From: an uncultured Candidatus Binatia bacterium
Lineage (GTDB): Bacteria > Desulfobacterota > Binatia > UBA9968 > JAJDTQ01
DNA length: 64,000 nucleotides
NCBI GenBank assembly: GCA_965215605.1
Contig: OZ244070.1
Coordinates: 192,001 to 256,000, forward strand
Direction of reading: 5' to 3'
Below, piece by piece: positions 36,206 to 53,944 of the stretch. The position numbers were made by a program, and so were the translations under genes. How positions within the stretch are numbered: the first letter of the stretch is position 1; every line of letters begins with the position of its first letter. Below the pieces are notes generated by a model. That model ran no database searches, was not told where the DNA came from, and worked only from the letters and a program-made list of their open reading frames with translations.

Positions 36206-36460
36206 TCAATAGTGATAGCGGCACTGGGCGATCATCACCGACTCGCTTTCCACCTTGTAGACGAGCCGGTGCTCATCGTTGATGCGGCGCGACCAGTAGC
36301 CGGCCAGGCCATGTTTCAGGGGTTCGGGTTTACCGATGCCTTCAAACGGTGAGCGGAGAATCTCCCGGATCAGCAGGTTGGCCCGGTTGAGCAATTTTCG
36401 GTCCGTCTTCTGCCAGTGGAGGTAATCGTCCCACGCGTCCTGGGAGAATATCAACCTCAC
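36206..36460 (-). CDS. yoeB: Txe/YoeB family mRNA interferase toxin
   Basis: AWDDYLHWQ, PFEGIGKPEPLK, WSRRINDEHRLVY, CRYHY. Confidence 0.95.
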   Translation of the reverse strand: MRLIFSQDAWDDYLHWQKTDRKLLNRANLLIREILRSPFEGIGKPEPLKHGLAGYWSRRINDEHRLVYKVESESVMIAQCRYHY

Positions 36461-36708
36461 TCGATGAGTTCTCTCGCCGTGCCCCCAACGGATTCGAGCT
36501 CGGCGATGGACTTCAGAAGACGCCGCGCGTTTCTCGGGCCGTGGAGAAGGTAGGCGGTTTCCTCCAACGCATGATAGTCCTCCAAGGACATCATCACCAC
36601 GGATCGGTTGTTATTTCGAGTGATGACCACCGGCGCATGGTCGTCGCAGACCTTCTCCATGGTCTTGGCGAGCCGTGCCCTGGCGTCAGAGTATGCGATC
36701 GTATCCAT
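36457..36708 (-). CDS. yefM: Phd/YefM antitoxin
   Basis: YSDARARLA, PVVITR, MSLEDY.ALEETAYLL..P.NARRL. Confidence 0.95.
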   Translation of the reverse strand: MDTIAYSDARARLAKTMEKVCDDHAPVVITRNNNRSVVMMSLEDYHALEETAYLLHGPRNARRLLKSIAELESVGGTARELIE

Positions 36709-40409: not shown

Positions 40410-42528
40410 ATCCTTTCCCCACGAAGATCCGCACGTTGCGGAACCCGTCGATCTCGGCCCGGTCCCGCGGGTTCACCACCACCGTGGTCACCGGGGTCTC
40501 GATGACCGCCGGGCCGGACAGTTCCATGCCCGGGCACATGCGCTGGAAGTCGTAGATGCGGGTGGGGGCGAACTCGCCCAGCTCCTCGAAGAACACGTTG
40601 CGGGGCGGTTTGAGGGCCTCGTCCGCGGGCGCCTTGCGCGCCGGCTCCTTCCTGACCCGGGGCTTCGCCAACAACCCCACCGCGGTGACCCGGAAGGTGA
40701 GAATCTCCTTGCCCGCCTCCCGGTAGCCGGAGCCCTTGCCGTAGGCCTTCTCGTAGGCGTCGTCGAACTCGGCGTAGAGCCGCTCCAGGTCGACCTCCGC
40801 CAGGGACGAGGTTCCCGCAGGCAGCGGTACGTTCAGTTCGTGCACTTGATAACGGTAGCGCATGTCGGCGCTGCGCGTGATCGCCATTTCGGAAGGGCCG
40901 AAACCGGCGGCGCCCAGGTCCGCCCGCGCCCTGCGGATCAGCTCGTCGAAGTTCGCGTTGACGCGGCCGGGATCGGCCGGCACCTGGAGGTGATCGGACT
41001 TGCCGTACTCGTGGACGACGTCGGAGCTGATGAGGCCCGTGGCGCCGTGCACCGAGGCCGTGGGCGGGATCACCACCTGCCGGACGCCGAGGTCGGCGGC
41101 GTAGCGGCTGGCGTGCACCGGCCCGGCACCGCCGAAGGCGAACAGCACGAACGAGCGCGGATCGTGCCCCTTCTCCACCGTCGCGCGGCGGATCAGATCG
41201 CTCATGTGCGCGTTGGAGATGCGGTAGATGCCGCGGGCCGCCTCGGACGCGCTCATGCCCAGGGGCTGCGCGATCCGCCTTGTCACCGCCCCAAGCGCGG
41301 CGTCGCGGTCCAGCCGCATGCGCCCGCCGAGGAAGTAGTCGGGGTTGAGGTAGCCGAGGACGAGATCCGCGTCGGAGACCGTGGGCTCGGCACCGCCGAG
41401 GCCGTAGCACACCGGCCCCGGACGGGCGCCAGCGCCCTCGGGCCCCACCTTGAGAAGGCCGGTCTCTTCCTCGATCCAGGCGACGCTGCCGCCGCCGGCG
41501 CCCACGGACTCGACCCAGATCTTGGGGGCCAGCACCCGGTGGCGGAGCACCACCGGCGTGTAGTCGCGCTCGATCCGCCCTTCCCGTACCACGCCCACCT
41601 TGAACGTGGTGCCGCCCATGTCGGTGGCCAGGATGTCGTGCTCGCCGATCAGCTCGCCCAGGAAACGGGTCCCCACCACCCCCGACACGGGTCCGGATTC
41701 GATGGTGCCCACGGCGTTGCGGCAGGTGGCCTCGATGTCGAGCACGCCGCCGTAGGCCTGCATGATCATCGGCGGCTTGGCCAGCCCCTTGCCCCGCAGC
41801 ACCTGATGGAGATTGACGAGGTAAGCGGAGATGCGCGGGCCGATGTAGGCGTTGAACACCGTGGTGGCGGTGCGCTCGTACTCGCCGACGAACGGCGCCG
41901 TGGCACTCGAAAGGGTGACGTAGACGCCTGGATGACGGCGCCGCAGGATGCCGGCCACCGCCTTCTCGTGGGCGTCGTTGGCCACGGACCAGAGCAGGCA
42001 CACGGCGACGGACTCGACGCCGCGCGCCACCAAGTCGTCCAGGGCGGCGGCGGCCTGCTCCTCGTCCAGGGGCACGGTAACGGCGCCCTTGTAGTCCACG
42101 CGTTCGTTCACCTCGGCCACCAGGGAGCGGGGAACGAAGGGCTCGGGCTTGCGCAGCCAAGCCAGCCGGCCGGCCTCGGCCTCGGTAAGCCCGTCGGTCA
42201 CCTTGCCGCGCATCATGAGCAGCGTATCCGGAAAGCCCCGGGTCGTCACCAGGCCGGTCCTCGGACCGGAGCGGGTGATCAGGGTGTTCTCGCCGATGGT
42301 GCAGGCGTGGAAGAAAAGCGTGGTTTGCCGGAGGAGATCCTCCTCGTCGCCAAGGCCGATATTGCGGGCCGCGTCCCGCACCGCGTCGGCAGCGCCGACG
42401 GAATAGTCCGGCGGCGTGGAAAGCGACTTGCCCACCACCATCTCGCCTTGGTCGTTGACCACGACGCAGTCGGTAAAGGTGCCGCCGATGTCCACGCCGA
42501 CCACGTATCGACCTCGGTAATCACTCAT
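40381..42528 (-). CDS. Hydantoinase A/oxoprolinase family protein
   Basis: GVDIGGTFTD, EYERTATT, SGPVSGV, DMGGTTFKVG, GPEGAGARPGPVCYG. Confidence 0.93.
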   Translation of the reverse strand: MSDYRGRYVVGVDIGGTFTDCVVVNDQGEMVVGKSLSTPPDYSVGAADAVRDAARNIGLGDEEDLLRQTTLFFHACTIGENTLITRSGPRTGLVTTRGFPDTLLMMRGKVTDGLTEAEAGRLAWLRKPEPFVPRSLVAEVNERVDYKGAVTVPLDEEQAAAALDDLVARGVESVAVCLLWSVANDAHEKAVAGILRRRHPGVYVTLSSATAPFVGEYERTATTVFNAYIGPRISAYLVNLHQVLRGKGLAKPPMIMQAYGGVLDIEATCRNAVGTIESGPVSGVVGTRFLGELIGEHDILATDMGGTTFKVGVVREGRIERDYTPVVLRHRVLAPKIWVESVGAGGGSVAWIEEETGLLKVGPEGAGARPGPVCYGLGGAEPTVSDADLVLGYLNPDYFLGGRMRLDRDAALGAVTRRIAQPLGMSASEAARGIYRISNAHMSDLIRRATVEKGHDPRSFVLFAFGGAGPVHASRYAADLGVRQVVIPPTASVHGATGLISSDVVHEYGKSDHLQVPADPGRVNANFDELIRRARADLGAAGFGPSEMAITRSADMRYRYQVHELNVPLPAGTSSLAEVDLERLYAEFDDAYEKAYGKGSGYREAGKEILTFRVTAVGLLAKPRVRKEPARKAPADEALKPPRNVFFEELGEFAPTRIYDFQRMCPGMELSGPAVIETPVTTVVVNPRDRAEIDGFRNVRIFVGKGFTSFPTRDP

Positions 42529-43505
42529 ATAGGGTTGATATAATTACGGTTTTTAAGGGATCTGACCTGCGGATCGCCAGGCATCTCCACGCCCCAGTCA
42601 AGCATCTTCTCGTAGCGCCAGGATGACGTTCTGCCATCCGGATACATCGTTGGAATTTCGGCCTGGTATCTTGATTTTCGGCCTGCCGGATCTTCTTCGG
42701 CAAAGACCGCGACCACGCGGGCTTCGACAGAACGCCGCCTTGGCGCATCCTCCCGTGTCGTCGGATCGTTGAAGGCGGTGTGAAAGGTGACCCGGGAGGC
42801 CAGATCCTCGATGCGGGAATCGTATTGCCTGAAGATCATCGCCTCATTCGGCTCCATCCGTGGAAAGTAATGCCAGTTCTGGGCCATGTCATGAACAAGG
42901 CGGTACAATACCAGGCGGGTGGCCGGCTCGGTCAGGCGCCATCCATCGGAACTGATCATGTCATCGGCCAAGATGGTCGAATGGTCGCACAACGCAAGGG
43001 GTTTTGACTCGATTGCCTGCAGGGGGTCCGTGCTGCGCCAGACAGTGTAGACGCCGAAGTGATGGCCATCAGGTATGTCGAGCACTTCCTCGACATAGGG
43101 AGTCAGATCCGCGTGGGGCGTCTCCGCATAGGTCCCGGCGCCGTTGGGCGAACTTGGCACGCCGGTGCGAAACTCGTGCTGCATGGTCCGTGCACGAAGG
43201 CATCCGGTTGCCGCCATGACCAACTCCGCGCACTGGTCGTAGAACCGGGAAACGACATCGTCATGATTGCCGTAATCGATATCGATCGGCGCATGCACAA
43301 GCTCGAATCCCATGCGCCCGATGGTGGCGGCCGGTTCGAGGGCGCGCGCATCGTGAACGCGGATCGGCTTGACAACGAGCACTTCCGAATGATCGGCCCC
43401 ATCACCGTGGCATGGCAGCCGGAACCCCCGGTATCTCGGATTCACGAAGGCACTTTCCGAAACAACAAACGACGTATCGGGAAACAATGGCAGAGTTCTC
43501 ATCAT
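42525..43505 (-). CDS. CmcJ/NvfI/AsaB-like Fe(II)/2-oxoglutarate-type oxidoreductase (copy 1)
   Basis: IRVHDAR..GFEL, HAD metal motif, VWRS, PLALCD, WHYFPRM, QYDS, FHTAFNDP, RRSVEARV. Confidence 0.82.
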   Translation of the reverse strand: MMRTLPLFPDTSFVVSESAFVNPRYRGFRLPCHGDGADHSEVLVVKPIRVHDARALEPAATIGRMGFELVHAPIDIDYGNHDDVVSRFYDQCAELVMAATGCLRARTMQHEFRTGVPSSPNGAGTYAETPHADLTPYVEEVLDIPDGHHFGVYTVWRSTDPLQAIESKPLALCDHSTILADDMISSDGWRLTEPATRLVLYRLVHDMAQNWHYFPRMEPNEAMIFRQYDSRIEDLASRVTFHTAFNDPTTREDAPRRRSVEARVVAVFAEEDPAGRKSRYQAEIPTMYPDGRTSSWRYEKMLDWGVEMPGDPQVRSLKNRNYINPI

Positions 43506-45016
43506 GACGTCGGCAGGTCCTGGAATTCGGGCGGTTGTGCCTTGCAGTAATCGTCAATGAATTGCTGGTGGTCCGGAAACTGGTCCACCTGCTTGTCGAC
43601 ATTTTCGTGGATGTCAGCCAGGTATTGCCCGAACTCCTCGTCGCTCATCGCATTGGCGATCGGGTGATACTGTTCCGGAATCAGACCCTGGCCCAGCATG
43701 ACCTGCGCCCATGACGTGGTGCCGAACAGTTCCGCCTGGTTCCACGCTATCCGGCCCGTTTGACGAAACAGCTTGATCCGGTGTTCGAGGGAGTCGGGAA
43801 TCTTCATGGTCCGGCACTGCCGCCAGAACGGCGTATCCGAGCGGTTGGTCACATGGTAGTGCAGGATGATGAAATCCCGGATATTGTCGATTTCAAGCTG
43901 CATGTGGGAATTGAACTCTGCGATCCCGGCTTCGCGAATTCCGTTATCGGGGAACATCTGGACCAGGCGGGTGATGCCGCGCTGAATGAGGTGGATGCTG
44001 GTCGATTCGAGCGGTTCGATGAAACCGGATGCCAGTCCCACGGCAACGCAGTTCTTGTGCCAGCACCTGTGCCTCTGGCCGGCTCTGAAACGGATCAGCC
44101 GCGGCTCTGCAAGCACCCGGCCCTGCACATTGTCGAGCAGCCGTGCCCTTGCCTCGTCGTCGGACCAGTGCCGGGAGGAGAACACCATGCCGTTCCCGAC
44201 CCGGTGCTGCAGCGGAATGCGCCATTGCCACCCCGCTTCACGGGCTATCGAGCGGGTATATGGATGCGCGGCTCCGGACGATTCGGTTGGCACCGCGATT
44301 GCGCGGTCACAGGGCAACCAGTCGCCATAATCATCGAAGCCGACATCGAGGGTTTGGCCGATCAGGAGCCCGCGAAAGCCGGTGCAGTCGATGAACAGGT
44401 CGCCGGTGACGAGTTGCCCGGTTTGCAGGCGCAGACCGGTTATGAATCCACTGGCCGGATCCTGTTCCACCTGCTCAATTCGTCCTTCATGCCGGACAAC
44501 GCCAAGCTCCTCGGCAATACCTCGCAGGAATTGTCCGTACAGTCCGGCATCAATATGATAGGCGTAGTTCAGAACGTTGTGCAGGCTGATTGCAAACCGG
44601 TCGCGCAGCGCCGCCGCTGTTTCCGGACAATATTCGCCATAATCCCGGGCCAGGCCCAGCAAATGGCCCCTCAGCCAGTAATGCTGAAAGCCGGCGGTCC
44701 AGCGCTCCCTGCCGACCCACCCGAAGGAATGGAAGTAGTCTTCGCCCAGGTCCCGCCAGTTCTCGAACGAAATTCCAAGCTTGAAGGTACCCTGTACGGC
44801 CCGCAGGAAATCAGTCTCCCTGACATCCATGTATTCGTGAAAAAGTCGCAGCGGTGGAATCGTCGCTTCACCCACCCCGACAGTGCCGATATCGTCGGAT
44901 TCGACCAGGACAATGTCCAGGGTTTCGCCAAGTTGCCGGGCAAACATTGCCGCAGCCATCCATCCGGCAGTCCCACCTCCGGCGATCACGAGTTTCCTGA
45001 TTTTCCTATTGTGCAT
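43502..45016 (-). CDS. Flavin-dependent tryptophan-halogenase family protein (full length, 504 aa)
   Basis: GGGTAG, VGVGEATIP, GTFKLGI catalytic Lys, YAYHIDA, GWQWRIP, FIEPLESTSIH. Confidence 0.93.
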   Translation of the reverse strand: MHNRKIRKLVIAGGGTAGWMAAAMFARQLGETLDIVLVESDDIGTVGVGEATIPPLRLFHEYMDVRETDFLRAVQGTFKLGISFENWRDLGEDYFHSFGWVGRERWTAGFQHYWLRGHLLGLARDYGEYCPETAAALRDRFAISLHNVLNYAYHIDAGLYGQFLRGIAEELGVVRHEGRIEQVEQDPASGFITGLRLQTGQLVTGDLFIDCTGFRGLLIGQTLDVGFDDYGDWLPCDRAIAVPTESSGAAHPYTRSIAREAGWQWRIPLQHRVGNGMVFSSRHWSDDEARARLLDNVQGRVLAEPRLIRFRAGQRHRCWHKNCVAVGLASGFIEPLESTSIHLIQRGITRLVQMFPDNGIREAGIAEFNSHMQLEIDNIRDFIILHYHVTNRSDTPFWRQCRTMKIPDSLEHRIKLFRQTGRIAWNQAELFGTTSWAQVMLGQGLIPEQYHPIANAMSDEEFGQYLADIHENVDKQVDQFPDHQQFIDDYCKAQPPEFQDLPTS

Positions 45017-45236
45017 AACCTGCCTCTGGAGGGTCGACTTGGCGTATTCGCGCCATTGCCGGACTGGTACAGGGCGGTTCAGGGCGGTTCAGTGTGGGCA
45101 AAATCTGCAGTCTGACATACGAGGCATCGACCAGGCCCGGAAGTCGGGGACCGGGCATCATGGGAATGGCGACACTGGCGTGCACCCATGACCGGCAGCG
45201 TTGGAGGATGGAAGTCCCGCTGGAAGAGACGGCAGC

Positions 45237-45305
45237 TCACCCGAAGGGAATGGTGCAGACTCCAGACCGGTCTGCCTGTGCCTCGATCTGTGACGGTGAG
45301 TTCAT
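45237..45305 (-). pseudogene. Internally deleted NHLP precursor remnant (MNSPSQIEAQADRSGVCTIPFG*)
   Basis: Upstream ATGTTCAGAGAA and coding TCACAGATCGAGGC are shared with the precursor at 45410-45670; similarity stops after codon 10. Confidence 0.65.
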
Positions 45306-45364
45306 GTCCGTTCGCCCTGTTCTCTGAACATTGGCACAACGGCATTGCTTGGCAGGAAGAATGG

Positions 45365-45397
45365 CTCCGGCAGAAAATCAGCAGATCACTGCCGGAG
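45365..45397 (-). terminator. Stem-loop just downstream of precursor 1 (terminator or mRNA-stabilising hairpin)
   Basis: CTCCGGCAG...CTGCCGGAG 9-bp stem, 12 nt after the stop. Confidence 0.5.
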
Positions 45398-45409
45398 ACC
45401 CGACAATGC

Positions 45410-45670
45410 TCACCAGGTGTGGATGTCACCAATCCCGCCGGCAACGCCGCTGATTTCCTCATCCGACAGGCTGCGGCCCGCCGGTGGCAGGACCAGGTGA
45501 TAGTCGGTGGCGTTGTCTTCAAGGACATGGATGTTGATGCCGTCCGGAACCGAAAGCCCGGTCGCGTCCTTGATGGCTGCCTTCGGGTCATTCAGGAGCC
45601 GGGCGCGGAATTCTCCGTCCTCGTCGGCCTTGGCAAGTACCTGCGCCTCGATCTGTGATTGTCTGCTCAT
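45410..45670 (-). CDS. NHLP-leader RiPP precursor 1; predicted core IGDIHTW
   Basis: AKADEDGEFRARLLNDPKAAI, HLVLPP, LSDEEISGVAGG double-Gly site; AAGGAG RBS; 86 aa. Confidence 0.92.
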   Translation of the reverse strand: MSRQSQIEAQVLAKADEDGEFRARLLNDPKAAIKDATGLSVPDGINIHVLEDNATDYHLVLPPAGRSLSDEEISGVAGGIGDIHTW

Positions 45671-45858
45671 GTCTTTCTCCTTATTCTCTGAACATCGCCA
45701 TAGCGACATGACGTCCTGCCGTTTTCCACGGCCATTGAACCTCAACTACTTCAGGTCATTGTTCGAGTCAACCCGATTGTTGCAAACTCTGGCGTTCCGT
45801 AAGCGTAAGCGAAACGTAAGCAACTGGCAGCAGAACGGGGCCAGCCGCACACCGGCGG

Positions 45859-46776
45859 CTATCCCGCGTTCCAATCGAGCATCACTTCGTGACGCGACGC
45901 CGCCGGGGTGCCGTCGAGATGGACTGTCGGAACCTCGGCCTGGAATCTGGCCCTTCTGACTTCGCGCTCCGTGTCGTCCTCGCGGAAGACCGCGACGACG
46001 CGCGCCTCCACTGATCGACGCAACGGCGCGTCCTCCCGGGTCGTCGGATCCTTGAAGGCGGAATGAAAGGTCATCCTGCGATTCGGCTCCTCCCGGCGCG
46101 AATCATACTGCACGAAGATCAGCGCCTCGTCCGGCGTCATGCGCGGAAAGTAGTACCAGCACTGACCGAGATTGTGGACAAGGCGGTAGTCCACCAACAG
46201 CGTTGGCGGTTCGGTCCGTCGCATACTGTCGGCGCAGACCATGTCGGTGCGGGATACGGTGGCGCCGTCGCAAAGGGCCAGCGGCATGAACTCTATTTCC
46301 CGTTCCGGATCGATACTGCGCCAGACGTTGAACAGGCCGAAATGCCGCCCTTCCGGGATATCCACGACGTCCTCGATGTAGGGGGTCACGTCGCCGTGGG
46401 CCGGCAGTCCATAGGCGCCGTTGGGGGTTCCATCCCTGAACTCATGTTGCATGACCTCCGCGGCCAGGCATCCGGTCGCCGCTCTGACAAGGTTCAAACA
46501 ATATTCGTAGAAGCGCGTCTTGACGAGCTCCCTGTTGGAGAAATCGATGCGAATGGGAGCTTCCACCAACTGGAAGCCCTGGTCATCGAGACTCGGAGCC
46601 TGCTCGAGCGCGCGGGCGTCATGGACCCGGATCGGCTTGCGGAGAAACATCTGCCGCCTCTCATCCAGATCGAGGGTTTGCTCGTACCCCAGGCGCTTGC
46701 CGCGATACTTTGGGTTCGCGAAGATCGTGTCCGAGATTACCGAGGGCGCGTCTGCCAAGGCCGGGATTCGTCTCAT
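45859..46776 (-). CDS. CmcJ/NvfI/AsaB-like Fe(II)/2-oxoglutarate-type oxidoreductase (copy 2)
   Basis: IRVHDAR..SLDDQGFQL, HGD motif, NVWRS, PLALCD, WYYFPRMTPDE, FHSAFKDP, RRSVEARV. Confidence 0.82.
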   Translation of the reverse strand: MRRIPALADAPSVISDTIFANPKYRGKRLGYEQTLDLDERRQMFLRKPIRVHDARALEQAPSLDDQGFQLVEAPIRIDFSNRELVKTRFYEYCLNLVRAATGCLAAEVMQHEFRDGTPNGAYGLPAHGDVTPYIEDVVDIPEGRHFGLFNVWRSIDPEREIEFMPLALCDGATVSRTDMVCADSMRRTEPPTLLVDYRLVHNLGQCWYYFPRMTPDEALIFVQYDSRREEPNRRMTFHSAFKDPTTREDAPLRRSVEARVVAVFREDDTEREVRRARFQAEVPTVHLDGTPAASRHEVMLDWNAG

Positions 46777-46797
46777 GCTTCCATCTCCGGGTTGATC

Positions 46798-49758
46798 TCA
46801 AGCCATTTGCCGCGATGCAAGGTCACGGAACGGACCGTCCGCGTTGAACAGCTCGTCGAAACGGCCGACCTGCACCACGCGGCCGCCCTTCAGCACGTAG
46901 ATCCGATCCGCCTTGCGGATGGTGGACAGCCGGTGGGCAATGACGAAACGAGTGCCGGTGGATTCCTCGACGGCCTTCATCGTCTGCGCCTGGCTCTTGG
47001 TGTCGAGCCAGCTCGTGGGCTCGTCGAGGAAGACGATGCGCGGGTTCCGCACCAGCGCGGCGGCGAGGCCGATGCGCTGACCCTGACCACCCGAGAACGT
47101 CGCCGCGTTCTCGCCTACCGTGGTGTAGAGCCCCATCGGCATGTTGCGGATGTCCTGGTCGACGGCCGCCAGGCGGGCGGCGCGCCACGCATCGACCGTG
47201 GTCAGATCGTTGCCGATGCCGATGATGTTGGTGAGAATGGTGCCGGCCTGGAGCGAGCCGTTCTGCATGACCACGCCGATCTGCCGCCGCACGGCGCCGA
47301 CGTCCAGTTGGGCCAGGTCCTGACCGTCGTAGTACACCGCGCCCGACGACGGCTTCTCCAGCCCCAGCGCAAGCCGGAACACCGTGCTCTTGCCGGCGCC
47401 CGATTCGCCCACCACCGCGACGAACTCGCCGGGCTTCGCGTGAATCGAGACCTCTTGCAGTATCCTGGGGCTGCCCTCGGAATAACTGAAGCTCACCTTG
47501 TCGAGGACGACTTCCCCTTCGAGTGTCGGCCGGATGCCGCGTCGGGCTCCGGCGTCCACCGGGCTCGCGAGTATCGGAAGCACCTGCTCGCATGCCGGCT
47601 TGATGAATGCCACGGCCCTGGCCGAATTGCCCAGCATCACGATGGACAGGCAAAAGACCATGGCCGCGATGTGGACGGCCACGAAGCCCGCCGCCGGGAG
47701 TCCACCGGCGCCTTGCGACGCCACCACCGAGAACAGGACGGCGCTGGCCAGCGCGGGCACTCCGGCGCTGAAGGCGGTGAGGCGTTCGCCGAGGACGGCT
47801 ATCCGGATCTCCGCCTGCTTGTGTTCCCGGTAGCGCTTCGCCCAGGCGGCGAAAGCCGAGTCTTCCGCGCCGGTGGCGCGCAGCTTGGCGATGCCGTTCA
47901 GGAACTGGTGCATGTCGCCGGCGAGTTGGCGCGCCGTTTCGAGGTGGCGCCGCTGCGGTTCGACATTGAGGATGCAAAAGACGGCCGTGGCGCCGAGCAC
48001 GACCATGCCCAGAAACACCATGGCCCAGCCCAGCGCCGCGCTGTGGTAGAACAGCAGCCCGAAGGCAGGCAACACGAACAACGTCGACAACACCGCGTCG
48101 GCCGTGACTCCGGCGACATTGTCCCTGATTTCCTGGAAGACCATGGACCGCGCCACCAGCTCGCCCGCGGTGAAGCGGCGAAAGAAGGCCGATGGCAGGC
48201 GCAGCAGACGGTCCCATACGGTCGAGACGAGCCGCGCGGCCAGACGCCCCTCCAGACGCATGAGCGCAGTGCCGCGGAGGACGTGCGCCGCCGCCGCCAC
48301 GAAGGCCAGCCCCACCAGAACGGCCGAGAACTGAATCAGCGCGGCCGCGTCGCCCGCGGGGATCACCCGGTCGACCAGCAGGTCGACGGCCACGGCCGGC
48401 GCGAGACTCAGCAAACCGGCGCCGAGGCCCGCGGCCACGAGCCGGCCGGTCTCGGTGGCGGCCTTTGTGCCGCCGACACGGAACAACTCGCGCAGTCCGG
48501 CGGCGCCCTCGGCGTGGAGCCTGGGATACAGCAGGCGAGCGTCGCGAATCTCGTGGGTCGTCTCGGCGCTGGCGGGTGTGGACTCACCGGTCACCGGATC
48601 CACCACGCGGTACCGGCCCGCCCGGCCGGGCAGCAGGACGACAGGACGGTCATCGTCGCGCCGAAAGGCCAGCAGCGCGCCGCTGTCCCCCAGGTACCAA
48701 CGGTCTTCCACCAACAGCCGGACTCGGCGCTCACGCACTCCCGACGCCTCGCAGTAATCGCGGAGCGACGGTTCCGCCCCGGCGCCGACGGCCGGCGTAC
48801 TGAATCGGATGCCTTCGTGCCGGCCGATGATCCGCAATGCGTTCCCGAGGGCCGTACCGTCCAACGCCGTCTCGTCACCGGCGTCAGACAGGCTCGACAG
48901 GTTCCGCCTGGCCAAGGCCTTGTCGTGGCGGCGCTGCGAAGCCTGCGCCACCTGCAGATTGGCGTCGTCGACCCGCAGCAGCCGCCGGTGCATGGACTCG
49001 GCGCCGAGAACCAACCGATGAAACTCCGGCAAGGCTGAGGTCAGCAGCGTGGCGATGTCGATCTCGCCGGTGGACACCCCGGTAATGTCCGTGGCCGAAT
49101 GCAGCCTGAGCCAGGTATCCCGGGTCAGGGGCATCATGCCGGGACCGTCCCTCCCCCCGGTGTCCGCCAGATCGAGGAAGGTAGCCTGGAGGTCGTCGGC
49201 CACAACCCAGACCACGCCGCGCTCGGCCGACACGATGCCGCTGCCCGCCGCACCTCCGGGAAGGAGCCGATGCTCGGTTCGGGGATGCTCCTCCATTTCG
49301 CGAACCACGGCGCCGCCCAGGTCCTCGATCCAGGCATCGACCTGCGCGCGCAGCGCGCACGAGAGCCGGTCGGCGTCGTCGCTCCGCTGCGCCGCGTCCA
49401 GCAACCGGTGGAGGGACAAGCAACGCAAGGAGGACCCTTGCAGTCCCTTCGCGATCAGTTTCAGGGAATGAGCGGCCGCGCCGGCGCCGAACGCCAGCCG
49501 GCCCTGCTCCAGGCGCACGACATGCCTGAAGGGCGACTGCATCTGGTCATCGGCGTACTCTGCCGCCAGGACGTCGATGGCTCCTCGTTCGACGAACCAG
49601 ACGACGCCGGCGTCCTGCAGGTGGATCGGGCGGCTTGCGGCGGCTTCCCGTGGCTCGCCGAACGCCGCGGCGAACTCGGCCAGCACGTCCCTCGGTTGTT
49701 CGTCATTCGCCACGAAGCAGCCCGTGGTAGAAGGTGCCGGCGGCGTGGAGCTCGTCAT
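46798..49758 (-). CDS. NHLP bacteriocin export ABC transporter permease/ATPase (TIGR03797-like)
   Basis: N-terminal cNMP-like/degenerate peptidase region, WDRLLRLP..FFRRFTAGEL, GESGAGKS, FSGGQ, LDEPTSWLD. Confidence 0.9.
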   Translation of the reverse strand: MTSSTPPAPSTTGCFVANDEQPRDVLAEFAAAFGEPREAAASRPIHLQDAGVVWFVERGAIDVLAAEYADDQMQSPFRHVVRLEQGRLAFGAGAAAHSLKLIAKGLQGSSLRCLSLHRLLDAAQRSDDADRLSCALRAQVDAWIEDLGGAVVREMEEHPRTEHRLLPGGAAGSGIVSAERGVVWVVADDLQATFLDLADTGGRDGPGMMPLTRDTWLRLHSATDITGVSTGEIDIATLLTSALPEFHRLVLGAESMHRRLLRVDDANLQVAQASQRRHDKALARRNLSSLSDAGDETALDGTALGNALRIIGRHEGIRFSTPAVGAGAEPSLRDYCEASGVRERRVRLLVEDRWYLGDSGALLAFRRDDDRPVVLLPGRAGRYRVVDPVTGESTPASAETTHEIRDARLLYPRLHAEGAAGLRELFRVGGTKAATETGRLVAAGLGAGLLSLAPAVAVDLLVDRVIPAGDAAALIQFSAVLVGLAFVAAAAHVLRGTALMRLEGRLAARLVSTVWDRLLRLPSAFFRRFTAGELVARSMVFQEIRDNVAGVTADAVLSTLFVLPAFGLLFYHSAALGWAMVFLGMVVLGATAVFCILNVEPQRRHLETARQLAGDMHQFLNGIAKLRATGAEDSAFAAWAKRYREHKQAEIRIAVLGERLTAFSAGVPALASAVLFSVVASQGAGGLPAAGFVAVHIAAMVFCLSIVMLGNSARAVAFIKPACEQVLPILASPVDAGARRGIRPTLEGEVVLDKVSFSYSEGSPRILQEVSIHAKPGEFVAVVGESGAGKSTVFRLALGLEKPSSGAVYYDGQDLAQLDVGAVRRQIGVVMQNGSLQAGTILTNIIGIGNDLTTVDAWRAARLAAVDQDIRNMPMGLYTTVGENAATFSGGQGQRIGLAAALVRNPRIVFLDEPTSWLDTKSQAQTMKAVEESTGTRFVIAHRLSTIRKADRIYVLKGGRVVQVGRFDELFNADGPFRDLASRQMA

Positions 49759-51922
49759 GCGTTCCCTGCTCCACGATGCGGCCCTTGTCGACGACGATGA
49801 TCCGGTCGGCGTCGCGGATGGTGCTCAGCCGATGCGCGATGATCAGACAGGAGCATCCGCGACGCCGGATTCGATCGTCGATGAGCAACTCGGTTACGGG
49901 GTCGAGGGCGCTGGTGGCTTCATCGAGGATCAGCAGCGACGGGTTGTTGACCAGCGCCCGGGCGATTTCCAGGCGCATGCGCTGTCCGCCGCTGAAGTTG
50001 CGTCCTCCCTCTTCCACCATGGACTCGTAGCCCGCCGGGCGGCCGATGATGTCCTCATGAACCGCGGCGTCGCGGGCCGCGGCGGTCACATGGTGATCCG
50101 GTATCGTCGCGGTCCACATGGTGAGGTTGTTGCGTATGGTCGTGGCGAACAGGACCGCATGCTGATCGACCATGGAGACGGACCGGCAGAATACCTCCCG
50201 CGGGATATCGACTTGCGGGTGGCCGTCGAAGAGCACTTCCCCGGACCAGGGCCGATGCAGACCCGCCGCCAGAAGCGCCAACGTGGACTTGCCCGAACCG
50301 CTGGGCCCCACCACCGCAACGCGCTGGCCGGGCTCGATGGTCAGGTTGAAGTCCTCGACGAGCGGCGCACGGTTCCGCTGGAAACCGAACGTGACGCCCC
50401 GCATCTCCAATCGTCCGACCAGACGCAGCCGGCCGTCGAGCGTCATGACCCGCTGTTGCGCGTCGGCGGCATGGTCGGGATAGGACATCTCCTGCGGCGC
50501 ATTGACCACGTCGTCCATCCTTGCCATATCGGCCTCCAGCGTCTCCAGCAGATCGGAGAACTGGGAAACCCGGGCCACGGGACCCAGAAAATTACCGGCG
50601 AGAACGTAGAATCCCATCAACCCGCCAAGGGTCATCTCGCCCGACATCGTGCGCCAGCCGCCAAGGCCGAACACCGCCGCCGCCGCGAGTATCTGAAACA
50701 GTTGCGGCAGCGCCGCGGCCACATGACCGAGTTCCACGAACGCCTGCCGCGCGCTCAGCTCGCGAGCCTGTCTGCCACTCCACAGCGAGAAGAAATCGGC
50801 CTCGCGGGCGGTTGCCTGCAAGGTCTCGATCATCTTGACGCCCGCCGTGCCCACCCCGAACGATATGCCCTGCTCGCGCCGTAGTCGATGGTTCTTGTCC
50901 CGGCGGAGGCGGGTCAGCACCTGTATCGACGCGACGCTGGCAACTCCCAAACCCCCAACCACAAGCGCCAGCCAGACATCGTATGCCACCATGACAACCA
51001 GAAAGGTCGCGCTCATGATGAGATCTACGGACAGCCGCACCATCTGGCCGGCTCCGGTGTCGGCGATCTGGTCGATGGTCCGCATGCGCAACGCCAGGTC
51101 TCCGGCGAGCCGGTGGGCGAAGAACCGCATGGGAAGCCGAAGCAAACGATCCAGGAAGTAGTCTGATTGGCTTATGGCAAGCCGGACGATGAGTTCGCGC
51201 AGGGAACGCATCTGGAGCCAGGTCAACAGGCAGATCAGCACGCTGGCGGCGAACATCGCCGCGATCAGCGCCCTGCTCTGACCCATCTGCTGGTCCTGAA
51301 AAACGCGATCCACGAATTCCGCAAGCAATACCGGCGGCGCCAGCAAGGTCAAGGCAAGGAGCAGGCCGTAGACGGCGGTGCGGGTCAGGAGGGAGCGATG
51401 GCCTCGCAACCACGGCCACAGGCGGCGCGCGACACCCGGACGCGCCCCGCCGGGCCGAAACGTGGGGCCCGGCTCGAGAATCAGGCCGACGCCCGTAAAC
51501 TCCTGACCGAAGTCACGCGCGTCGACGACGCGATGACCTTCGGCGGGATCATTCAGATAGTAGCGCCCGCGCGCGATGCCCTCCAGGACCACGAAGTGCC
51601 TGAATCCCCAATACAGGACCATCGGCTTCGGCAGCTTGGCGAGGCCATGGACCTGGCTGCTCCAGCCGGTGGCCTTCAGGCCGTATTTCCTGGCGGCGAT
51701 GGCGATGTCTTCGAGCGTCGAACCGTCACGCCCGACTCCGCAGTCGTCACGCAGAACTTCCAGGGGCACCCTGCGCCCGAAATGGGCGAGCACGGCGCCA
51801 AGGCATGCCGCGCCGCAGTCGGCCGCCTCCAACTGCATGAACAACGGTGTGCGGCGCGGTCTCCGCCAGCGCCCGAGCGTCCCGGGAGCAGCGGAGAATT
51901 TTGATTCGGCAGGATCAGCCAT
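49703..51922 (-). CDS. C39 peptidase-containing ABC transporter of NHLP systems (TIGR03796-like)
   Basis: RTPLFMQLEAADCGAACL catalytic Cys, HFVVLEG His, GPSGSGKS, FSGGQRMRLEIAR, LDEATSALD. Confidence 0.93.
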   Translation of the reverse strand: MADPAESKFSAAPGTLGRWRRPRRTPLFMQLEAADCGAACLGAVLAHFGRRVPLEVLRDDCGVGRDGSTLEDIAIAARKYGLKATGWSSQVHGLAKLPKPMVLYWGFRHFVVLEGIARGRYYLNDPAEGHRVVDARDFGQEFTGVGLILEPGPTFRPGGARPGVARRLWPWLRGHRSLLTRTAVYGLLLALTLLAPPVLLAEFVDRVFQDQQMGQSRALIAAMFAASVLICLLTWLQMRSLRELIVRLAISQSDYFLDRLLRLPMRFFAHRLAGDLALRMRTIDQIADTGAGQMVRLSVDLIMSATFLVVMVAYDVWLALVVGGLGVASVASIQVLTRLRRDKNHRLRREQGISFGVGTAGVKMIETLQATAREADFFSLWSGRQARELSARQAFVELGHVAAALPQLFQILAAAAVFGLGGWRTMSGEMTLGGLMGFYVLAGNFLGPVARVSQFSDLLETLEADMARMDDVVNAPQEMSYPDHAADAQQRVMTLDGRLRLVGRLEMRGVTFGFQRNRAPLVEDFNLTIEPGQRVAVVGPSGSGKSTLALLAAGLHRPWSGEVLFDGHPQVDIPREVFCRSVSMVDQHAVLFATTIRNNLTMWTATIPDHHVTAAARDAAVHEDIIGRPAGYESMVEEGGRNFSGGQRMRLEIARALVNNPSLLILDEATSALDPVTELLIDDRIRRRGCSCLIIAHRLSTIRDADRIIVVDKGRIVEQGTHDELHAAGTFYHGLLRGE

Positions 51923-51929
51923 GCGGGGC

Positions 51930-52100
51930 TTACGGCCACAACGTAACTGCGGCCCAGGCTACGAGCATCAGCAACGGGACCAGAAGCGCCGCCACGAAAA
52001 CGCGCTCATGCGGTGCCGTCACGCGCAACAGGTCGTCCACTGCCTCGGGTTGCACGCTGCGGATGAGCGCTTCCTGGCGGTAAACGGAGGGGGCCGGCAT
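51930..52100 (-). CDS. 56-aa ORF matching only the N-terminal anchor of the NHLP HlyD-family secretion protein (mini-protein or truncated gene)
   Basis: MPAPSVYRQEALIRSVQPEAVDDLLRVTAPHERVFVAALLVPLLMLVAWAAVTLWP*; resembles the FRxEAL...PEQLDxLxxVTxP-TM start of TIGR03794-type proteins and sits in the expected gene position. Confidence 0.7.
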   Translation of the reverse strand: MPAPSVYRQEALIRSVQPEAVDDLLRVTAPHERVFVAALLVPLLMLVAWAAVTLWP

Positions 52101-52118
52101 CAGGCAAGGAAGGGGTGA

Positions 52119-52140
52119 GCGGCGCGTCTACCCGCGCCGC
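52119..52140 (-). terminator. GC-rich hairpin downstream of precursor 2
   Basis: GCGGCGCG-N6-CGCGCCGC. Confidence 0.5.
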
Positions 52141-52164
52141 CCCTCATTGAACCGGTCTAAGCGA

Positions 52165-52425
52165 TTACCAAAGAGCGCTCCAGGAACCACCGGCGGCCGC
52201 GCGCATTTCTTCGTCCGAGAGAGCACCCCCGGCCGGCGGCAGGACCAGATGAACGTCCGTGGCGCTCTCTTCGTGAACGTGGACGGTCAGGTCCTCCGGC
52301 ATGGCCAACCCCGTGGCTTGCTCAATGGCCTTCCTCGGATCTTCCAGGAGCAGGGCACGGAATGCTTCGTCCTCGTCCGCCTTCGCTCGCACGAGAACCT
52401 CGACCTCTGGTGAAGAATTTGCCAT
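52165..52425 (-). CDS. NHLP-leader RiPP precursor 2; predicted core SWSALW
   Basis: AKADEDEAFRALLLEDPRKAI, HLVLPP, LSDEEMRAAAGG; AAGGAGGA RBS; 86 aa. Confidence 0.92.
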   Translation of the reverse strand: MANSSPEVEVLVRAKADEDEAFRALLLEDPRKAIEQATGLAMPEDLTVHVHEESATDVHLVLPPAGGALSDEEMRAAAGGSWSALW

Positions 52426-52540
52426 TGAATCCTCCTTTACGTTCGCCGTTAGGGGTGAATTTCCAGGCCTCGGCTTCGCCCGCGGCCGCTCCAGGAGGGC
52501 CGCCGAACCGGCGCTGAAGGCCCACATCAGCACAAATCCA

Positions 52541-52569
52541 CTGATACACGCACCGCTTGCGAGAGTCAA
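52541..52569 (-). promoter_or_regulatory. Putative sigma70 promoter for the precursor-2/exporter operon
   Basis: On the - strand: TTGACT-17 nt-TATCAG. Confidence 0.35.
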
Positions 52570-52669
52570 GGCAGCCTGCGACCGACGGTGCGCCCATGGT
52601 GGCAACGGCAACGGTGAGCGGCTATAGGAAAAGGGGACCGAACTGCTTCACCCCTGAGGGTTTCGTGCA

Positions 52670-53944
52670 ATGGTACAGCCGGGCGCCGAGTCTTTACGGA
52701 AAATCGCCGTTGTGGGGCGAGGAACCGCCGGGTCCATGGCGACCGCCAGCATCACACATGCCCTCCGGGACACGGACCACGAGCTGCACCACATCTACGA
52801 CTCGCGCATTCCGGTCATCGGCGTGGGTGAAGGCAGTTGGCCAAGCCTTGTTCGTGAGTTGCAGCGACTGACGCATCTTCCCCTTGACGCGATTCAAATG
52901 CGCGTGAAGGGAACCCGCAAGTACGGCGTGGCATTCGAGGGCTGGGGCCGGCGCAACCAAAACTTCATCCATTACTTCATGCCGCGCCATGAGTCCTACG
53001 GCTACCATCTGTCTGCCGACTTGATGGCGGACCTCCTGCGGGAACACACGAGAGCGCGCCACATCGACGCCAAAGTGCTTGACATCACCAGGGTGGAGGA
53101 CGGCGCCCGGGTGGAATTCGAGAATCTGGCGCCGGAACGCTACGATCTGGTCTTCGATGCCCGCGGTTTTCCGAGAGAACTTCATCCCGACCAGCACATC
53201 CACATCCCCTTCATCCCCACCAATACGGCCGTCATCCGGCGCTGTCCGGCGATCTTCGAGGAAGCGCAGGACGGGCCGGTTCTGCAACACACCTTTACCC
53301 GCGCCGTCGCGCGTCCCCACGGCTGGATATTCGTGATTCCGCTTACCACGCACACGTCCTGCGGGTACATCTTCAACCGCGACGTATCGAGCCCCGCCGC
53401 GGTCGAGTCCGACTTCGACGCGTTCCTCAAGACGGAAGGAATATCCGAATTCGAGCAACGCGCCGTCATTCCGTTCCCGAATTTCGTCCATCGCGCCATG
53501 TATGACGGCGCAATAGCACGCATCGGCAATGCGGCGACGTTCATGGAACCCCTTGAAGCGACGGCGATCGGGGGCGCCGGGGCCCAGATCGGACTGGTGC
53601 TTCACGCGCGCCTCAGCCGTCCGGTGGAAAAACTCGAAGAGGACGCACCGGTGGTCAACCGGTTTCTCGTCAAAAACATGCTCTCCTTCGGCCTGTTCGT
53701 CGGTTGGCACTATGCCCGCGGCTCGAACTACGACAGCGGTTTCTGGCGCCATGCTCGTGATCACGCCTGGCCGCGGCACCGCAGGGCGTTGGACACCGAG
53801 CCGGCGGGTTCCCCCGCGCTCCGGAGTTTCGACGAGATGATCGAAGCGACGGCCCGCACCGTCATCGATGCAGCGGACTGGAAACGGGAATGCGGGTTCC
53901 CGTTCAGCAGCTATTACCAGATGTCTCAGGGCCTCGGCTGTTGA
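52670..53944 (+). CDS. Short, divergent flavin-dependent halogenase family protein (424 aa)
   Basis: GRGTAG, IGVGEGSWP, GTRKYGV (Lys retained), YGYHLSA, GWIFVIP, FMEPLEATAI. Confidence 0.82.
   Translation: MVQPGAESLRKIAVVGRGTAGSMATASITHALRDTDHELHHIYDSRIPVIGVGEGSWPSLVRELQRLTHLPLDAIQMRVKGTRKYGVAFEGWGRRNQNFIHYFMPRHESYGYHLSADLMADLLREHTRARHIDAKVLDITRVEDGARVEFENLAPERYDLVFDARGFPRELHPDQHIHIPFIPTNTAVIRRCPAIFEEAQDGPVLQHTFTRAVARPHGWIFVIPLTTHTSCGYIFNRDVSSPAAVESDFDAFLKTEGISEFEQRAVIPFPNFVHRAMYDGAIARIGNAATFMEPLEATAIGGAGAQIGLVLHARLSRPVEKLEEDAPVVNRFLVKNMLSFGLFVGWHYARGSNYDSGFWRHARDHAWPRHRRALDTEPAGSPALRSFDEMIEATARTVIDAADWKRECGFPFSSYYQMSQGLGC

Follow-up and report, generated by a model that had tools for sequence, protein, structure and literature searches.

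The DNA analysed here (the window) is a 64,000-nucleotide stretch from an uncultured Candidatus Binatia bacterium (contig OZ244070.1, positions 192,001 to 256,000). It contains an 11.4-kb cluster (42525-53944) for peptides that are made by ribosomes and modified after translation (RiPPs) of the nitrile hydratase leader peptide (NHLP, proteusin-type) class, with two precursors, two flavin halogenases and an exporter. Two further genes of the cluster encode Fe(II)/2-oxoglutarate (2OG) oxygenases of the CmcJ/NvfI family, P0001 and P0002, and we consider it highly probable that both are RiPP-tailoring enzymes acting on these precursors. In the literature searched, their Fe/2OG oxygenase fold has not earlier been tied to RiPPs, and they form part of a close-knit clade whose members go with NHLP peptides that have an aromatic residue at the C-terminus. 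Fe/2OG hydroxylases are already known in proteusin pathways; the association of the CmcJ/NvfI fold with ribosomal peptides appears to be new.

The two oxygenases

P0001 and P0002 are paralogues with 55% identity across 308 columns (E 1e-118, far past chance), and both pass NF041278, the NCBIfam model of the CmcJ/NvfI family, whose cut-off is 80 bits (scores in Table 1). The Pfam scan gave no match for either protein, and PF27522 was met solely as a precomputed label. The catalytic motifs named in a preliminary description of this DNA can all be read in P0001 and P0002, that is, HAD and HGD, FHTAF and FHSAF, respectively, and RRSVEAR in both. The end motifs that it had noted, FVNPRYRG and FANPKYRG near the N-terminus, RYQAEIPT..DG..MLDW and RFQAEVPT..DG..MLDW near the C-terminus, are likewise present with the spacings described. 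So is the gene spacing: P0001 and the adjacent halogenase gene (43502-45016) overlap by 4 nt, and P0002 starts 21 nt past the stop of the exporter gene ABC2 (46798).

The sequences of P0002 and NvfI can be aligned (E 1e-13) so that HxD, the RxS arginine and the distal His all match up. The AlphaFold2 (AF2) model of P0002, built from a 44-sequence alignment, has a pLDDT of 93.4 and a pTM of 0.91. When it was compared with the PDB by Foldseek, each of the ten best matches was a chain of NvfI or of CTB9 (E 5e-21 to 2e-18), with NvfI at E 4.9e-21 (template-modelling (TM) scores 0.70/0.76) and CTB9 at E 4.4e-19. Residues H127, D129, H238, R253, E257 and R259 of P0002 are invariant in that alignment, as are H131, D133, H242 and R257 of P0001, which match the NvfI residues, in a 38-sequence alignment. 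We regard P0001 and P0002 alike as intact oxygenases of the Fe(II)/2OG type.

The features shared with NvfI, CTB9 and CmcJ are thus NF041278, the double-stranded beta-helix (TM ~0.7), the HxD...H triad and the 2OG-binding Arg. However, the structural-alignment identity to NvfI and CTB9 is just 19-26%, and these three enzymes, CmcJ included, act on small molecules, whereas P0001 and P0002 sit in a RiPP cluster and carry N- and C-terminal extensions.

Genomic neighbourhoods of the relatives

A word-indexed search returned ~66 proteins at >=47% identity across their whole length, below which values fall sharply to 33% identity and 77% coverage. When 1.84 billion representatives were searched with a profile, 5,530 family members were obtained at E <=0.001. 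General family members match profile positions ~45-270 of 311 alone; just ~20 of the 5,530 extend to both ends of the profile, and one (486 bits) covers it whole. Species-representative genomes were also scanned, giving 305 loci with a relative, and the best 80 of the 305 were examined, nearly all of them from metagenome-assembled genomes (MAGs). Open reading frames (ORFs) were called in these 80 loci (L001-L080) and searched with the window proteins and a precursor-built profile. Several of the MAG names (Poribacteria, Poriferihabitaceae) are typical of sponge symbionts, the habitat being judged from names alone.

Among the 45 closest loci (L001-L045, about 50-94% identity to P0002), an intact NHLP precursor is found in 34, the pair of ATP-binding cassette (ABC) exporter genes in 37, the small protein encoded upstream of the exporter in 35 and a halogenase in 18; at least one of precursor, ABC pair and halogenase occurs in 41/45. 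Each of these counts is 0/35 for the more distant loci (L046-L080, 37-49%). Where the close loci have full 10-kb flanks, a RiPP marker is present in 24/25, and the co-location of oxygenase and RiPP genes spans three phyla as named by the tree tool. As the preliminary description had anticipated, the closest homologues (>=~50% identity) mostly occur with NHLP genes. Its notion of a RiPP-dedicated subfamily holds for this close clade, with its marker in 41/45 loci, and does not extend to the sister clade, which bears the same extensions and has a marker in 0/35.

The sister clade (38 rows, 35 loci, 37-49% identity) comes from Poribacteria and Gammaproteobacteria MAGs. Its neighbours in L046-L080 include genes for GFO/IDH/MocA oxidoreductase, sulfatase, ThuA, zinc-dependent alcohol dehydrogenase and major facilitator superfamily proteins, which suggests that it acts on a sugar-related small molecule. 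An 81-aa ORF family beside the poribacterial sister-clade genes was considered as an alternative precursor and rejected, the NHLP signature being absent.

Further copies of the enzyme deserve mention in their own right. In two Nitrospirota loci, L010 (9073-10933) and L013 (9012-10933), two tandem oxygenase genes of the close clade follow ABC2, and the cores are AVPTGDW and AVPTSGGW; the tandem enzymes may form a heterodimer or perform two successive oxidations. The window's own genome has two CmcJ-family matches at 36-38% identity (L084, C1:3119192-3119917; L085, C1:3337163-3337804), with one in-frame TAG each, and a third distant one, L086, at 30% identity, which is intact.

Precursor cores and the putative target

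The 44 intact typical precursors all have a leader that ends in GG (or AG) and is followed by a core of 6-10 residues. The C-terminal residue of the core is Trp in 32/44 and Tyr in 12/44, and no other core position is conserved. At least 10 core classes with no evident resemblance could be distinguished, that is, IGDIxTW, FGHGGFAW, TNNYGPWGW, ..TGTPTW, SWSALW and xAPTxxSY, as well as CGDCGLGDY, AVPTxGW, FAPGGDSW/YAAAGDSW, YAPSNGNW/YLPANGNY, YYSDSW and FSGQAW. These classes are matched by the enzyme clades. For example, the 19-row clade of P0001 (support 100) has IGDIxTW-type cores in 13/14 precursor-bearing loci, and a 10-row clade (support 100) has xAPTxxSY cores in 7/7. P0002 and its 94%-identical orthologue in L001, located after ABC2, both pair with a SWSALW precursor, and precursor 2 is likely the substrate of P0002. 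Sister enzymes can nevertheless differ in the core terminus, as L019 and L034 do, one of them having W and the other Y. Among tailoring genes, the oxygenase alone occurs in every one of these clusters, and among core features the aromatic residue at the C-terminus alone is constant. Because the universal oxygenase coincides with the constant aromatic, we propose the C-terminal core residue as its target, an assignment that we favour slightly.

The target might instead be an internal residue, such as a beta-hydroxylated Asp, Asn, His or Thr, or, in a variant, two core residues joined by an oxidative cross-link. Asp is indeed found in many cores (IGDIxTW, xAPTxDSY), and the accessible text of one source describes Fe/2OG enzymes, namely PoyI, EreI, PhaI and DivX, that hydroxylate Val, Asn or Asp in the making of proteusins and lanthipeptides (PMC9505594); however, no internal position is conserved across the core classes, in contrast to the C-terminal W/Y in 44/44, and SWSALW, AVPTSGGW and FGHGGFAW contain neither Asp nor Asn. 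As for the cross-link, position 1 of the core is variable (I, S, F, W, Y, A, G, T, C), disfavouring a fixed end-to-end link. An internal target therefore seems unlikely to us.

The predicted complex with precursor 1

The complex of P0001 and precursor 1 was predicted with a 38-row alignment for the enzyme and an 18-row alignment for the precursor. The runs scored 0.65, 0.65 and 0.67, and the three controls all scored 0.00; the partner pLDDT is >=80 and the runs agree in >=69% of contacts. At that mark, 116/157 solved complexes and 2/215 mismatched pairs pass, a calibration that holds roughly with self-supplied alignments. Modelling the enzyme together with the precursor had been put forward in the preliminary description, and the predicted pair passed the controls (0.65 vs a best control of 0.00). 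The model supports binding of the precursor by the oxygenase.

The predicted contacts involve residues 3-13, 19, 39-40, 43-47, 127, 131, 133, 189-190, 198, 200 and 205-208 of the enzyme, and residues 3-11, 39-47, 60-73 and 83-86 of the precursor. In the model, enzyme residues 3-13, 43-47 and 205-208 face leader residues 39-45 and 62-68. Among the contacts, H131 and D133 are iron ligands, and precursor residues 83-86 correspond to IHTW, with which the core ends. Precursor residues 60-73 form the VLPPAGRSLSDEEI segment, with a Pro-rich stretch and an LxxxxL-type motif.

The preliminary description had supposed that the shared extensions may bind the leader. This part was not borne out. The predicted interface uses residues 3-13 and 39-47, and neither the cited motifs nor the C-terminal extension. 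In the N-terminal FxNPxYRG motif, conservation of F20, R26, G27 and R29 extends from the NHLP clade to the non-RiPP one, and the same is true of R276, R279, A282, D290 and G291 in the C-terminal RFQAEVP..DG motif. Because they are conserved in the non-RiPP sister clade too, the extension motifs are not leader-specific, and we therefore see in them traits of structure or catalysis that belong to the subfamily at large rather than leader-binding devices. Only the final MxDW, among the cited end motifs, is specific to the NHLP clade. In total there are 18 NHLP-clade-specific positions, including P6, A127, R190 (95% of the NHLP clade vs 0% of the sister clade), E299, M301, D303 and W304.

Several points weigh against the assignment of these oxygenases to the peptides. 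The complex prediction is a measure of model confidence, and its 25 lowest-error residue pairs are all leader contacts; consequently, it is only from the lists of contact residues that the end of the core can be placed at the iron. The clade-specific positions are not enriched in the predicted interface (3/18, the interface comprising 30/326 residues; p = 0.22). One divergent NHLP gene, in the overlapping L005/L029, ends in GCVN, not in W/Y. No RiPP marker was found in 4/45 close loci; in L006, L008 and L037 a contig end cuts the locus short, and L040 shares its contig with the L034 cluster, at a distance of ~17 kb. Nor do all loci count as independent, given the overlap within L005/L029 and within L034/L040 and the near-duplicate MAGs behind L016/L017, L020/L022 and L025/L026. 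Since the sister clade shares the extensions outside any RiPP context, the fold alone implies no peptide substrate. In a quick IQ-TREE tree of 88 rows with six distant outgroups (three rows were dropped, two identical and one partial), the branch that splits off the non-RiPP clade has an SH-like approximate likelihood ratio test (SH-aLRT) value of 93, under the 95 mark.

The lack of enrichment in the leader interface also bears on whether the leader is required at all. That is, tailoring could take place after leader removal or independently of the leader, on the exported or released 6-7-mer or a fragment of it. NvfI, CTB9 and CmcJ, as characterised relatives, act on small molecules, and the chlorinase MibH, according to the accessible text of PMC10858898, is leader-independent and requires the leader to be gone. 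The prediction with the full precursor nevertheless passed, with extensive leader contacts; no signal peptide was noticed on the oxygenases (no formal test made), and the C39 peptidase domain of the exporter would not strip the leader until export, by which time the cytoplasmic enzymes have done their work. We regard such MibH-like tailoring as improbable compared with tailoring of the leader-bearing precursor.

A mobile precursor-halogenase-oxygenase unit

The locus L001, from a Binatia MAG, is collinear with window positions 56714-45852 at 96-97% identity and then runs directly into hydantoinase genes. It lacks a 3.3-kb unit composed of precursor 1, a precursor remnant, the tryptophan halogenase and P0001, and it keeps both precursor 2 and the second halogenase. 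One copy of the unit is found 73 kb off in the record of L001 (L018) and another in the genome that the window comes from, on contig C6 (L087, core IGDINTW), both ~96% identical to that of the window. The unit is also 92-95% identical to the Alphaproteobacteria loci L014 and L043, whose ABC genes are just 67% identical, and the 917-nt P0001 gene has 95-97% identity to L018, L087, L014 and L043. The second precursor copy of the unit, a remnant in the window, is degraded in L018 and on C6 as well, and intact in L028, L033, L014 and L043, where the cores differ (FGHGGFAW, TNNYGPWGW).

With 92-96% DNA identity across phyla, the module is therefore horizontally mobile. Judged from these comparisons, the 3.3-kb unit behaves as a self-contained tailoring module that would dock onto a resident NHLP export system. 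Its homology stops exactly at the stop codon of the other copies (L018, L087, L014), which is lost in the window. Because the native stop is lost, P0001 runs ~19 codons into the junction, up to the hydantoinase start; accordingly, its final ~19 residues (window 42525-42586) are read-through into AT-rich junction sequence. The P0001 ORF overlaps the start of hydantoinase A by 4 nt (42525-42528), and this overlap is an artefact of the read-through. The hydantoinase genes were rejected as cluster members on account of their host-like GC content at third codon positions (GC3, 0.91), the presence of further pairs elsewhere in the window and their occurrence nearby in just 3/45 loci.

That the oxygenases have nothing to do with the peptide and serve a small metabolite, immunity or regulation, being merely linked to an exporter, would agree with the sugar-type neighbours and zero RiPP genes of the sister clade and with the overlap of P0001 and hydantoinase A, but is very improbable given the co-location kept across three phyla, the tracking of core classes by enzyme clades, the horizontal transfer of the precursor-halogenase-oxygenase unit, and the junction origin of the overlap with hydantoinase pairs that are host genes by GC3 (0.91 vs 0.68-0.78).

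It may be added that the hydantoinase A region itself (window 40417-43247 vs L001 10262-13050) is ~79% identical between the two records, with flanks at 90-97%.

The cluster and its surroundings

The features of the cluster are listed in Table 1. The preliminary description covered the range 42525..46776 and spoke of precursors there. One of them is intact and the other is the 22-codon remnant; the second intact precursor and the second halogenase are located outside that range.

Table 1. Features of the NHLP cluster in the window (aa, amino acids; E, expectation value).
Feature	Position	Strand	Evidence
P0001, CmcJ/NvfI-family Fe/2OG oxygenase, 326 aa	42525..43505	-	NF041278 151.8 bits
P0003, flavin-dependent tryptophan halogenase, 504 aa	43502..45016	-	PF04820 E 9.6e-189; best solved relative 6y1w E 1.2e-188
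Tandem precursor gene remnant, 22 codons	45237..45305	-	5' region is a second copy of the one before precursor 1 (repeats D1/D2)
NHLP precursor 1, 86 aa, leader end GG, core IGDIHTW	45410..45670	-	TIGR03793 leader_NHLP 74.6 bits (cut-off 50.9)
P0002, CmcJ/NvfI-family Fe/2OG oxygenase, 305 aa	45859..46776	-	NF041278 168.6 bits
NHLM ABC2 permease/ATPase, 986 aa	46798..49758	-	TIGR03797 E 1.3e-199, 665 bits (equivalog cut-off 709 narrowly missed)
NHLM ABC1 exporter with N-terminal C39 peptidase domain, 739 aa	49703..51922	-	TIGR03796 849.7 bits (cut-off 853.3)
Single-helix protein upstream of ABC1, 56 aa	51930..52100	-	Homologues at the same place in 35/45 related loci
NHLP precursor 2, 86 aa, core SWSALW	52165..52425	-	Precursor-profile match E 4.9e-43
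Second, shorter flavin halogenase-like protein, 424 aa, divergent	52670..53944	+	PF04820 E 2.5e-41; PDB tryptophan halogenases E 5e-21 and weaker

The peptidase domain of ABC1 matches PF03412 (Peptidase_C39) at E 3.5e-29, and it is expected to cleave after the GG of the leader. In the second halogenase, GWIFVIP replaces the GWQWRIP of P0003, and the Lys of GTRKYG is retained. The small protein directly upstream of ABC1 (49-56 aa in the different loci) has the sequence YRxEALIRxxQPEALDDLLRVTAPHER followed by one hydrophobic helix. It looks like the N-terminal stub of an HlyD-type adaptor; NCBIfam gave no match for it, the stub reading was confirmed by no library, and the clusters showed no HlyD gene of full length. 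YcaO, radical-SAM and lanthionine-synthetase genes were looked for with Pfam or NCBIfam among the 61 window ORFs scanned, and none turned up.

In this high-GC genome, the GC3 of the flanking genes is ~0.9, vs 0.68-0.78 for the genes studied here. Hydantoinase A/B pairs, several of them in the window, form the left flank and a tripartite ATP-independent periplasmic (TRAP) transporter the right one, both being host genes. A hairpin (45394-45379) is located just 3' of precursor 1; in a promoter and terminator scan the counts were not above those of shuffled sequences. Among the sequencing runs searched, no RNA run was listed as containing this DNA, and the best DNA run contained 0.36 of the sampled words. 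In addition, a YefM/YoeB toxin-antitoxin pair (window 36206-36708, minus strand) is located between hydantoinase gene pairs.

Accessory genes in related loci

Two other types of gene, both absent from the window, recur in the close loci. A protein of ~355 aa is encoded in 27/45 of them (e.g., L010 10949-12016, minus strand), with no match in Pfam or NCBIfam. Its AF2 model (pLDDT 84) has top structure matches that are all aromatic prenyltransferases, with 6-DMATS first (E 6.5e-7), then TleC, DMATS1, CloQ and Orf2 (TM ~0.5), and a language-model search gave the same lead. The protein is accordingly predicted from its model to be ABBA aromatic-prenyltransferase-like. A class-I methyltransferase occurs in 11/45 close loci. 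The presence of prenyltransferase-like and methyltransferase genes fits an aromatic residue as the modification site. It should also be recorded that the ~355-aa gene often adjoins the methyltransferase gene or that of a ~340-aa protein of unknown family (6 loci).

Comparison with known systems

As far as the accessible text of PMC9505594 goes, PoyI, EreI and PhaI are Fe(II)/2OG oxygenases with genes next to those of NHLP precursors; they modify the core, hydroxylating Val or N-methyl-Asn in long cores. The cores here, in contrast, have 6-10 residues and an invariant C-terminal aromatic.

A closer parallel is offered by the srp (sponge-derived RiPP proteusin) clusters, which, in the accessible parts of the sources, combine an NHLP precursor whose core is LCCCW, a YcaO cyclodehydratase and SrpI, a brominase of the C-terminal Trp (PMC10858898, PMC12615548, 10.1101/2023.06.09.544420). 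Bromination of the C-terminal Trp by SrpI is described there as leader-dependent via a Pro-rich/LXXXXL region (PMC10858898, PMC12615548), and this region of SrpE and MprE is reported to have been shown to bind SrpI (PMC10858898). As in srp, the NHLP precursors here have a short core with Trp as its last residue and are accompanied by a flavin Trp halogenase, and the leader segment in the predicted P0001 interface would be the very segment that SrpI binds. Unlike srp, the cores IGDIHTW and SWSALW have no Cys triplet, and no YcaO was found among the 61 ORFs scanned. A CmcJ/NvfI-type gene is not mentioned in the accessible portions of the srp descriptions (PMC10858898, PMC12615548).

The part of a sponge metagenome survey that could be consulted reports many NHLP clusters and does not list this enzyme (PMC9426513), and a survey of sponge halogenase clusters excludes RiPPs by design (10.64898/2026.08.03.742642). 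Full-text literature searches found no link between NvfI or CmcJ and RiPPs, the original 2021 srp paper and its supplements, which may list such clusters, being outside their coverage.

Proposed pathway and implications

We propose that oxygenases of the CmcJ/NvfI/CTB9 fold may have been drawn into the biosynthesis of NHLP (proteusin-type) peptides, where they would serve as tailoring enzymes guided by the leader. In the window, P0001 would work with precursor 1 (IGDIHTW) and the adjacent Trp halogenase, and P0002 with precursor 2 (SWSALW) and the second halogenase. The enzyme would grip the Pro-rich/LxxxxL segment of the leader and feed the short core into the iron site, where the C-terminal aromatic (Trp here, Tyr in one other clade) would be oxidised. 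Finally, the C39 domain of ABC1 would cut after GG, and ABC1 and ABC2 would export the modified 6-7-residue peptide.

Concerning the reaction, beta-hydroxylation is a tentative possibility, and decarboxylation-assisted desaturation to a C-terminal enamide is perhaps a shade more tentative; that the reaction is some other one has not quite an even chance. In isonitrile pathways, IsnB and PvcB are decarboxylating Fe/2OG desaturases whose substrate has a free carboxylate derived from Trp or Tyr and whose product is a vinyl compound. They belong to another Fe/2OG family and act on small molecules, and so offer a mechanistic precedent only. Chemistry of this type, acting on a free carboxylate, would explain the C-terminal position of the aromatic. 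One could speculate further, at rather long odds, that the clade as a whole decarboxylatively desaturates the free C-terminal Trp or Tyr and, with the neighbouring brominase and, elsewhere, prenyltransferase and methyltransferase, yields 6-10-mers ending in a (bromo)indolyl- or hydroxystyryl-enamide.

Peptides with C-terminal dehydrotryptamine or dehydrotyramine occur in marine invertebrates. If the enamide proposal were true, it would give such peptides a ribosomal and horizontally mobile origin, and enamide formation would be a new reaction both for the CmcJ/NvfI family and for RiPP biosynthesis. More generally, the clade marks a compact family of clusters, each built around the oxygenase, an NHLP precursor, a pair of ABC exporters and a small membrane protein, to which halogenase, prenyltransferase-like and methyltransferase genes are optional additions. 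The oxygenases of this family may represent a new leader-guided C-terminal modification, which could be useful beside the SrpI bromination toolkit.

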